In this document: one piece after another, positions 3,001 through 6,000 of the stretch
How the letters are laid out: the number at the start of each line of letters is the position of its first letter
Position numbering within the stretch: the first letter of the stretch is position 1
Source of the DNA: a virus
Taxonomy: Duplodnaviria; Heunggongvirae; Uroviricota; Caudoviricetes
DNA length: 10,083 bases
Direction: 5' to 3' (one strand)
IMG/VR virus record: IMGVR_UViG_2534682078_000009
Program-made: the position numbers

Positions 3001-6000
3001 TCAAACAGAACTCGCTACGTGCCCTTAAAACTCGATCATTTAGCCCCTCCAAGGAGGATTCACCATGCGGTTGATTTTTTAATAAACAGTAAACAAAAAA
3101 GTCAAGAATTATTCATTCTGTTCTTTCATCATCGGCCACAGCAATACCACAATGCCGCAGACCAGAGCGCCATCAGTCAGTACCAACATTATCCTGCTGG
3201 TGAAATCCATCATCACCATCACTAAAAGCAGGATCACAACAGCAAGCAGACACAGTTTATAAAACAATGTTCAGAAAACGCATTCAGCATGCCTAAGGTT
3301 CTATTCCTACGAATAGCCAACTTGCAACTTAAAATATTATTTATGCAGCCAATTAAATTCTGGTCCTTACAATATCAACCTGAAGATTCTTATCTTGTGC
3401 TGATTGATAAATGACAAACCTTTTACTACCTGCATTGAAAGAAGTAGACAAAACCAGACAATTATCATAACGAGCAAGAACATAATACCAACCATCATTA
3501 TAATTAATCATTTCATATTCTTTCTTAAACTGTGGTTTGTAATATCCTGTCAAAAATGAAAAAAGCCAAAAATATGCCACAAAAGCAATCATCACAATCT
3601 CAAAAAAATGTTTTTTTATAAATGGCTTATCATAGAAGCATGATACCGATAAAAATCGCCCATAAGATCTTATCGAAATTGTAACCGCCAGCGCAATCGC
3701 TGCTGACAGTAGCAAAAGAGGTACCTGAATCTTCTGTCTCAATATAGAAAACTCAATAATTGCCGGCACAAACAATAATTCCACAGCAAAATAAAGGCGA
3801 AATACATTTAGCTCTTGCATAGAATGTTTTCTTTTCACTGCGAAAAAGAATACAACACCAATACCCCAACCGATAAGAAATATAGCAATGACGATAACTG
3901 CAAAAAATAAACTTCTGGCAACATCATCAACACCTGCACCTACAATCCACCATGGGAAGCCGTAGTAAAAAGAAGTACCCCATCCATAGAAATAAGCACT
4001 CCCCCATCCAAGGCATCCCATGTAGGCAATAAAAAGTGAAGAACTCCTGAGCAGCGCACCATCCTTCATAACCACCCCAATACAAGATGATAACATTGGC
4101 TTACAACTCATAACAAAAGCAATTCAATGCCGTCAAGAGGTTACAGGCTAAAAAAACTCTATTACATAGCAGCCAGCATGTTTACCGTACAAGTACAACT
4201 CAGGGCATAAAAAAAACCCACTCGGCAGCGGGTTTATACATTTTTTACAACATACCAAATTTGCATGAAGTATATGGCTTTTAATCCAGTTTTGCAATAT
4301 TTTGCTGTAAAAATGCTGCCTTTTGTTTTGAACGTGTTCTCGTCACAAGCAATAAAGCATCACTATCAAGCTGTAGAAAAATGTGCTTCATTGCAACCCA
4401 GCGTTCAGTAAATGTCTCGGACCAGTTTTTTGTTGTCACTCCCACCAATGATGCCAGTGTCTGGTATTCATAGGCCTCACGCCCTGCAAGTTCGCTCTTC
4501 ACATCCTGTGCAGCCAGCCAGATTAACGTCTTCAGGCGATCCAGTGTCTTACCTGCAATTTTTCTGTTACTTAACAAATCTTTAAACTCGCTCCATGCCC
4601 ATTGCGTTATGGTGACCTGATGCCCCCATCGAACGCTTTCGCTGTAACACCAAAGCAACCATGCTTTCTGATGTTCATCGAGAGACAAAACCGCGCGGCG
4701 CCATGAAGAGGTTGAGAATTCAACCGGGCTGACCAAAGCAATGGATGAACCTTTTGCGTACGACTGCTTACCGGAAGTCGGCGTATTATCCAGCGTAATC
4801 ATCTTGCCAGTTACCACATCCAGAATGCGCGGCTTCTTTCGTTTGTATGTACCAGTATCAAATTGTGCATGCTCCTGCCAGGCTTCGAGCTGGCCTTTCG
4901 TTGCTCCGTTCAAGTCAGCAGTAGCTGCCATAAGTTGCTCACGAACATACTGTAAATATTGGGTATTCATGCAGTAAATCCTTTCTATATTTTGGCATAA
5001 TTCTTCAACATTCGGTAATCGTTCAAAACCGAATCGGGGAAACGACATAAGCACACGAGCCCCCAGCGACAGCGAAGGAGTTCTGATATATAAGACTCAG
5101 ACATCATTCATTCCCCGGTTCTCCAATATCTGTTTCACTCATCATCCATAACTACCTGTAATTGCCCCCCCCTTTTTTTGTAACAGTTCTTATATTGCTA
5201 TATAGAATAGCCATTACTAATGCTTTTAAATTTAATAAAATAAAAATTATAAAAAACATAAAACACCACGCAAACACACTTAATAAAAACACCGTTACAT
5301 TAAAAGATAATAAAAACCGCAATAAAAAACGAATAAATCAATTGTCTCACGCAATTATAAAACATCATATTGATTACGCACCTTGTATTACAAACTCATG
5401 TATGTAAAATACGCGCACCATTCAAAAAAAAGGAAGACAATAACATATGAAAAAAAGTGTCATCGCTGGCGTCTTTATTGCTCTGTCATTTACCACGTGT
5501 TCAGCTATCGCGAACAGCCTTGCATTATCATTAGCAAATGATGATGCAGGGAAGTTTCAACCAATACTTAATGATATTTATGGCAATAAACATGAAAACA
5601 GAGATGATTACTCACAAGGCTTATTTCTGGGATATAGCCACGATATCTCAGACTCGAGCCAATTATCTCTCCATATTGCGCAAGATATTTACTCTCCATC
5701 AGGCAGTAATAAAAGACACAACACAGCTGTAACTGGAGACAGAGCTTTTAGTGCATACACTCACACTGGTATTGAATGGAACTCCCTTGCGAATGACTGG
5801 ATTCGCTATCGATTAGGTACTGACATAGGTGTTGTTGGCCCCGACGCAGGCGGTCAGAAAGTACAAAATAAAGCTCATGAGATTATTGGGGCAGAAAAAT
5901 ATCATGCATGGGATGATCAAATAGAGAATCGCTACGGTTATACTGTAAAAGGGATGCTATCCATGACACCAAGTATGGATATTTTAGGTGCTAATGTTGG

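Follow-up and report, generated by a model that had tools for sequence, protein, structure and literature searches.

The DNA considered here is a stretch of 10,083 nucleotides from a virus of the Caudoviricetes (IMG/VR record IMGVR_UViG_2534682078_000009), hereafter the window. In its entirety it represents a lambdoid prophage of the enterohemorrhagic Escherichia coli (EHEC) O111, O26 and O157 type. Our subject is the region that directly follows its gene for the antiterminator Q, where a late promoter (pR'), a sigma70-dependent pause element and an intrinsic terminator (tR') stand one behind the other. These features, like all others discussed unless stated otherwise, are on the minus strand.

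The late promoter at the end of Q

The Q gene (4281..4970) encodes a protein of 229 amino acids that begins MNTQYLQ; the mechanically delimited open reading frame (ORF), which opens with GTG and spans 4281..5054, probably overstates its length. The protein matches the Pfam family PF06323 (Phage_antiter_Q) with an E-value of 1.1e-91 over 216 of the 220 profile positions, and it shares 89% amino acid identity with the Q protein of phage 82, which bears out the Q-like assignment that a preliminary description of the window had made. PF06323 is the family named Q82 (PMC9388147), and the gene is annotated 'Q82-like' in the record of phage 434 (OL657226). A search of the PDB gave no solved structure of a Q82 relative.

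Between 4330 and 4200 the sequence runs through the 3' codons of Q (CAG CAA AAT ATT GCA AAA CTG GAT TAA) and continues with AAGCCATATACTTCATGCAAATTTGGTATGTTGTAAAAAATGTATAAACCCGCTGCCGAGTGGGTTTTTTTTATGCC. A consensus scan places the -35 hexamer TTGCAA at 4297..4292, within the last codons of Q, and the -10 hexamer TATACT at 4274..4269, a position that alignment with the TATATT of phage 82-type loci also indicates. The 17-bp spacer between them, AACTGGATTAAAAGCCA (4291..4275), contains the Q stop codon TAA (4283..4281), so that the promoter overlaps the 3' end of the Q gene, as had been proposed. Both sequence reading and the consensus scan show that the positions and strand originally given for promoter and terminator are exact. 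The hexamers and spacing are likewise as first described, but the label 'near-consensus' is too generous, since the promoter matches at only 9 of 12 positions (4/6 plus 5/6), the lowest score that the consensus scan reports.

Promoter-like sites with 9/12 matches occur 12 times in the window, against 17.6 expected from shuffled sequence, and terminator-like sites occur 12 times, against 8.9 in shuffles. Because at these site densities chance alone would give each window about 0.4 pairs of a promoter and a terminator 20-80 nt apart on one strand, the pair taken by itself is not significant. What lifts it above chance is the Q82-family gene directly upstream, the enrichment of a composite motif among related loci, and the folding of the leader.

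Correspondence to the late promoter of phage 82

We identified the phage 82 pR' by matching the properties described for it (PMC5001585) to sequences beside 87-90%-identical Q genes. In that work, wild-type 82 pR' initiates at AAA; its -10-like pause-inducing element has an extended -10 and lies nearer to consensus than that of lambda; and GCC at +15-17 is followed by an AT-rich stretch. Pausing takes place at +25/+26; the base at +25 is U, and inserting one base at +18 would bring a G to the pause position. Relative to the paused 3' end there is a G at -11, no G at -10, and none after it (PMC5001585). The loci beside the 87-90%-identical Q genes, which include PhiR47_2, PPompW prophages and many IMG/VR contigs, carry TATATT TCATG(C/T) AAATCTGATATTTTGCCAATGTTGTAC. 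When +1 is set at the first A of AAA, the PhiR47_2/PPompW-type sequences agree with every one of these published properties, their leader having TGA-TATTTT at +6..+14, G15, C16 and C17, G24, U25 and A26.

The window aligns with the PhiR47_2/PPompW-type sequences without a gap from inside Q to +26, and in all aligned loci the AAA lies 7 nt past the -10 hexamer. By homology to 82 pR', the start site is therefore predicted at A4262, the first base of the initial AAA (4262..4260). The sigma70-dependent pause element, an extended -10 TGG followed by the -10-like TATGTT, would then occupy 4257..4249 (+6..+14), and the register predicts pausing at U4238 (+25) and A4237 (+26). This pause element is the key component that the preliminary description lacked. 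Judged by its sequence, the window promoter represents one allele of 82 pR', a promoter that has been studied by experiment.

The phage 82 late region has a Q of the same family (PF06323), the same TTGCAA -35 hexamer, 17-bp spacing and AAA start, the same placement of the pause element at +6..+14, and the same G15, G24, U25 and A26, and its promoter also overlaps the end of Q. The two differ in the -10 hexamer (TATATT in 82, TATACT in the window), in the pause element (TGA-TATTTT in 82, TGG-TATGTT with G at +8 and +12 in the window), and at +15-17, where 82 has GCC and the window has GTA with an A-run at +17..+22. They differ further in that the terminator hairpin of 82 starts at about +50 and yields an RNA of about 78 nt, whereas that of the window begins at +28 and would yield about 54 nt; the hairpins themselves are unrelated.

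The Q-binding element (QBE) of pR' is placed between the -35 and -10 elements (PMC4914094). In the window this corresponds to the spacer, which differs from PhiR47_2-type spacers at 2-3 positions and is partly coding sequence, and Q would presumably bind there. Together, the pause element and the presumed QBE would make the locus a Q-utilization site.

We consider it very probable that this is the Q-utilization cassette of a phage 82-type lambdoid prophage, in a compact variant in which the terminator abuts the pause site. What we observed directly are the elements in the sequence, the register in which they stand, how far they are conserved and the family to which Q belongs. Several points nevertheless weigh against the assignment. 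The start site, the pause, the binding of Q and the read-through of this particular allele would have to follow the published behavior of phage 82, from which they are taken over. That the Q-binding site is conserved can be presumed only from how nearly identical the spacers are. The predicted pause may be weaker than that of 82, or shifted, because changing GCC to AAA at +15-17 of 82 pR' shortened the pause about five-fold (PMC5001585) and the window has GTA at these positions. Finally, the host prophage may be defective, Sp3 of the O157:H7 strain Sakai having pseudogenes, in which case the switch may rarely be used.

Terminator and predicted leader RNA

A terminator scan locates the tR' hairpin, AAACCCGCU-GCCG-AGUGGGUUU, at 4235..4214 (+28..+49), with a 9-bp stem and the loop GCCG; it is followed by a U-tract (UUUUUAU) at 4213..4207 (+50..+56), where the 3' end of the RNA is predicted. 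A terminated leader RNA (4262..4207) is predicted because lambda, 21, 82 and the Shiga toxin (Stx) phages have comparable short RNAs; with +1 at A4262 it would be 53-56 nt long, or about 54 nt, in line with the earlier proposal of an intrinsic terminator and a short RNA of about 50 nt. The minimum free energy of the leader is -15.3 kcal/mol (z = -3.57), and that of the terminator hairpin alone is -12.0 kcal/mol. The fold of the leader consists of a weak hairpin on the 5' side (+8..+27) and the tR' hairpin, which begins directly past the predicted pause at +25/26. The hairpin carries a terminator annotation in the phage 434 record. Past tR', the next strong intrinsic terminator found by the scan has an 8-bp stem with 7 GC pairs and a T8 run (2923..2905).

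Among otherwise identical copies in viral contigs, the T-run of the terminator (4209..4216) varies between T7, T8 and T9. Three loci (L012, L015 and L050) exemplify this variation, which includes one G-to-T change in the stem.

Terminated short pR' RNAs are known for lambda (6S RNA), 21, phi80, 82, P22 and Stx phages (PMC7547250). The preliminary description saw in the window the logic of lambda pR', 6S RNA and tR', marking the point at which Q-dependent read-through begins, and the combination of a Q82-family gene with an 82 pR' allele argues for this view. Lambda shares with the predicted window cassette a constitutive promoter beside Q, a QBE in the promoter, a sigma70-dependent proximal pause, a terminator and a short RNA in lysogens. 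Lambda Q, however, belongs to the unrelated family PF03589, and there is no sequence similarity between the lambda region and the window cassette; moreover, lambda pauses at +16/17 and terminates at +193, as opposed to +25/26 and about +54 predicted for the window. The short transcript had been called a 'Q-substrate RNA', which is misleading, for the targets of Q are DNA and the polymerase at the pause, and the RNA arises only as a by-product.

The preliminary description had further noted that the equivalent transcript of Stx phages is reported to act as a regulatory RNA. This is correct, as StxS is a functional Hfq-binding small RNA (sRNA) (PMC7547250), but its link to the window is one of analogy only. 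In Stx1 and Stx2a phages, StxS is likewise a late-promoter transcript that ends at tR' in lysogens. It is a 258-nt RNA, cut by RNase E to 74 nt and bound by Hfq, whereas the window leader would measure 54 nt, and the Q of the Stx2a phage is of the Q21 family (PF06530) rather than PF06323. A comparison of the window leader with the leader region of Sp5 that encodes StxS gave only matches of at most 10 nt, in terminator-like stretches. The likeness to StxS is thus one of logic.

We weighed the idea that the 54-nt leader, produced constitutively in lysogens, also serves as a trans-acting regulatory sRNA in the manner of StxS, possibly missed by an Hfq screen owing to its very short length. An A-rich stretch, a terminator hairpin and a U-tail are typical of Hfq-dependent sRNAs, and the leader has all of these (its A-rich stretch is UAAAAAAUGUAUAAA, its tail U8); in addition, 620 of 5,426 complete E. 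coli genomes, major EHEC serogroups included, have the cassette. Yet the first 26 nt are accounted for by the constraints of a pause signal acting at the DNA level and the remainder by the terminator, homology among relatives ends at +26 with no conserved seed, and there is neither similarity to StxS nor an Rfam family at gathering score. Prophage Sp3 of Sakai has an identical promoter and early leader sequence, which makes the Sakai list from Hfq cross-linking and analysis of cDNA (CRAC) relevant to the window leader. Within Sp3 that list contains only EcOnc13 and EcOnc32, both downstream of ECs0816 and neither at the leader, although absence from the list counts for little, especially for an RNA of 54 nt. 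Because the pause signal and the terminator already account for the leader and we saw no positive evidence for a role in trans, we regard such a role as quite improbable.

Candidates for known RNA elements at the locus were set aside. A search of the region against Rfam returned no family at gathering score. The best sub-threshold match, STnc240 (28 bits against a cut-off of 55), is a chance match driven by the terminator; STnc240 itself is a core-genome Salmonella sRNA located between yoeI and yeeY and is unrelated to phages. Amino acid leader families and the other permissive matches (10-28 bits) we judged to be artefacts of the terminator and of A/U-rich sequence. A leader peptide or attenuator was rejected as well: the sole ATG-initiated mini-ORF (4265 onward) has its start codon before the predicted +1, and runs of regulatory codons are absent. 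The multicopy prophage sRNA HnrS (66 nt) is unrelated, since its genes lie in Sp9, Sp10 and Sp12 and Sp3 has none.

Conservation among Q82-family loci

A search for close relatives among viral contigs reached only Q proteins with 87-100% identity, and the more distant relatives come from a scan of one genome per species, queried with an alignment of five Q82-family proteins. The scan yielded 68 loci, of which 67 were analyzed, with Q identities of 29-73% and from many enterobacterial genera, among them Kluyvera, Citrobacter, Enterobacter, Klebsiella, Raoultella, Leclercia and Erwinia. In 59 of the 67, a single site directly after Q combines a TTGCAA-like -35 hexamer, a 17-bp spacing, a TATAtT-like -10 hexamer, TGnTAnnnT at +6..+14 and an intrinsic terminator; the other eight deviate by one or two bases, as in CAGATAT. 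The hexamer TTGCAA is found in nearly all Q82-family loci, across about 25 genera. Expressed as a composite motif (-35, 16-18 bp, -10, 10-13 bp, TGnTAnnnT), the arrangement has 62 matches in the 273 kb that these Q82-family loci span, compared with 0-5 in shuffles; each locus has one, always just 3' of Q.

The position of the terminator divides these loci into two classes. The hairpin starts at about +48 in most of them and at +28..+30 in 12, as in the window, and every one of the most divergent Q proteins (29-35% identity) is among these 12. The compact layout is also seen in phage Flotzy, which has a PF06323 Q as well. Because 12 loci and Flotzy share it, the compact form is by sequence a widespread natural variant and not a peculiarity of the window. 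The leaders behind near-identical 82-type promoters are of at least four distinct types. In four IMG/VR loci (L055, L076, L077 and L083), which represent the fourth leader type, the 82-type promoter is followed by no obvious terminator in the first ~100 nt.

The TTGCAA region invites another explanation, in which it serves also, or instead, as paQ, an antisense promoter activated by CII and firing back into Q. On the plus strand, 4292..4305 is TTGCAATATTTTGC and fits TTGC-N6-TTGC exactly, and the phage 434 record annotates it as a CII site with the paQ -35 element, although the annotators of that phage marked many such sites under a looser consensus. Since TTGCAA is palindromic, the same hexamer could work in either direction. 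Both TTGC repeats are kept, with a variable N6, in PPompW and PhiR47_2-type loci, but the motif lies in coding sequence (Gln-Gln-Asn-Ile-Ala-Lys), which explains much of this conservation, and it decays in distant loci, where the first repeat is lost by a synonymous CAA->CAG change or the spacing becomes 5. An eight-base motif of this kind is, moreover, expected about 0.3 times per 10 kb when both strands are counted. A paQ at this position is in our view unlikely.

Distribution and modular structure

The 181 bp around the cassette occur at >=99% identity in the 620 E. coli genomes noted above (~11%), and the carriers include EHEC O157, O26, O111, O103 and O145. Phage 434 is 99.9% identical to the window over 3300-5100 and 100% identical over 4150-4330. 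Its record marks the terminator, the Q82-like gene and the putative paQ/CII site, leaving pR' and the pause element unannotated, and its genome announcement contains no discussion of pR'. An exact copy of the promoter as far as +14 (50 bp) lies between ECs_0815 (Q) and ECs_0816 in prophage Sp3 of O157:H7 Sakai, where the 3.85 kb around it share 99.4% identity with the window. By comparison, the window prophage has another nin region and, downstream, an additional gene for an esterase.

Homology of the window to 82-type leaders ends at about +26. The terminator and what lies beyond it show homology to phage 2B8 instead, a phage with a Q of the lambda family (PF03589) and a different promoter. 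We place a recombination joint between pause site and terminator (4234..4248), because the 82-type homology ends at about +26 and the 2B8 homology starts at the terminator. Two modules travel separately, one comprising Q, promoter and pause site, and the other the terminator and cargo. Phage 2B8 has the same downstream cargo as the window, and its copy of the terminator looks degenerate.

That the terminator accompanies the downstream cargo even in a phage with a lambda-type Q could be taken to mean that it alone is functional, ending early transcripts that run through Q and insulating the cargo, while the promoter-like hexamers are a chance match. The statistics of the window by themselves would allow this, since shuffles contain 9/12 sites at least as often and chance would give about 0.4 pairs spaced within 80 nt. 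We find the idea hardly tenable, given that hexamers, spacing, start and pause element keep a conserved register down to 29% Q identity and correspond to those of the biochemically defined 82 pR'.

Neighboring genes

The first gene that polymerase would enter after read-through encodes a membrane protein (3353..4096), a cargo or moron gene that equals ECs_0816 of Sakai Sp3 and for which a Pfam search returned no family. Directly preceding this ORF is a second promoter-like site (4087..4126), TTGTTA, 18 bp and TATCAT with an upstream TG, and with TTGACG a few bases further upstream. The membrane-protein gene may therefore have a moron-type promoter of its own and be expressed independently of Q in lysogens.

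Further downstream, at 2894..3098, lies a copy of STnc100 (RF02076) that matches the full-length model at 41.4 bits (cut-off 47; E = 1e-6) and ends at the strong terminator 2923..2905. Coordinate mapping identifies it with EcOnc13 of Sakai Sp3, which sits in the most heavily Hfq-bound intergenic region of the Sakai Hfq cross-linking study. The copy overlaps a small ORF (2864..3052) that is annotated as a putative membrane protein in phage 434.

The late operon also contains a gene for a 616-amino-acid esterase (960..2810) with the domains DUF1737, SASA and DUF6645, which we take to resemble NanS-p. The alignment with Sp3 stops at window position 2786, inside the start of this gene, so that Sp3 lacks almost the whole esterase; phage 434 has the gene. 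On the plus strand, between the nin region and Q, lies a lipid A deacylase gene, LpxR (5447..6406; Pfam E-value 7e-40), a virulence-type cargo that is also found in phage 434 and in Sakai Sp3 (ECs_0814). At the edge of the window is a fragment of an IS3-family transposase (9886..10059), which matching E. coli genomes name IS1203.

A model for the late operon and its implications

We propose the following sequence of events. RNA polymerase holoenzyme would start constitutively at A4262. Sigma70 retained in the complex would then re-bind, through its region 2, to TGG-TATGTT at +6..+14, and scrunching would carry the complex to about +25/26, where it would be held. In the lysogen, without Q, the polymerase would escape, copy the hairpin from +28 and release an RNA of ~54 nt at the U-run. 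Upon prophage induction, Q would be made from the early transcript, and Q on its DNA site in the spacer, beside the paused complex, would join the polymerase with the help of NusA. The Q-modified polymerase could then pass both tR' and the strong terminator at 2923-2905 and proceed into the cargo, lysis and structural genes.

An element of this kind is well known, and what the window contributes is a new allele, one already present in public phage and genome records, which leaves current understanding unchanged. The minimal cassette is defined as ~90 bp in which the terminator comes directly after the pause site. Natural variants of the pause element, with GTA or GTC at +15-17, could be used to test the published rules of sigma70-dependent pausing. 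The identical cassette in many EHEC prophages can be annotated in the same way. For the prophage itself, the start of the late operon would be fixed, with the minus strand from 4262 downward predicted to be silent in lysogens beyond ~54 nt, and Q would switch on the membrane-protein cargo, the STnc100/EcOnc13 region, the esterase and the lysis genes.

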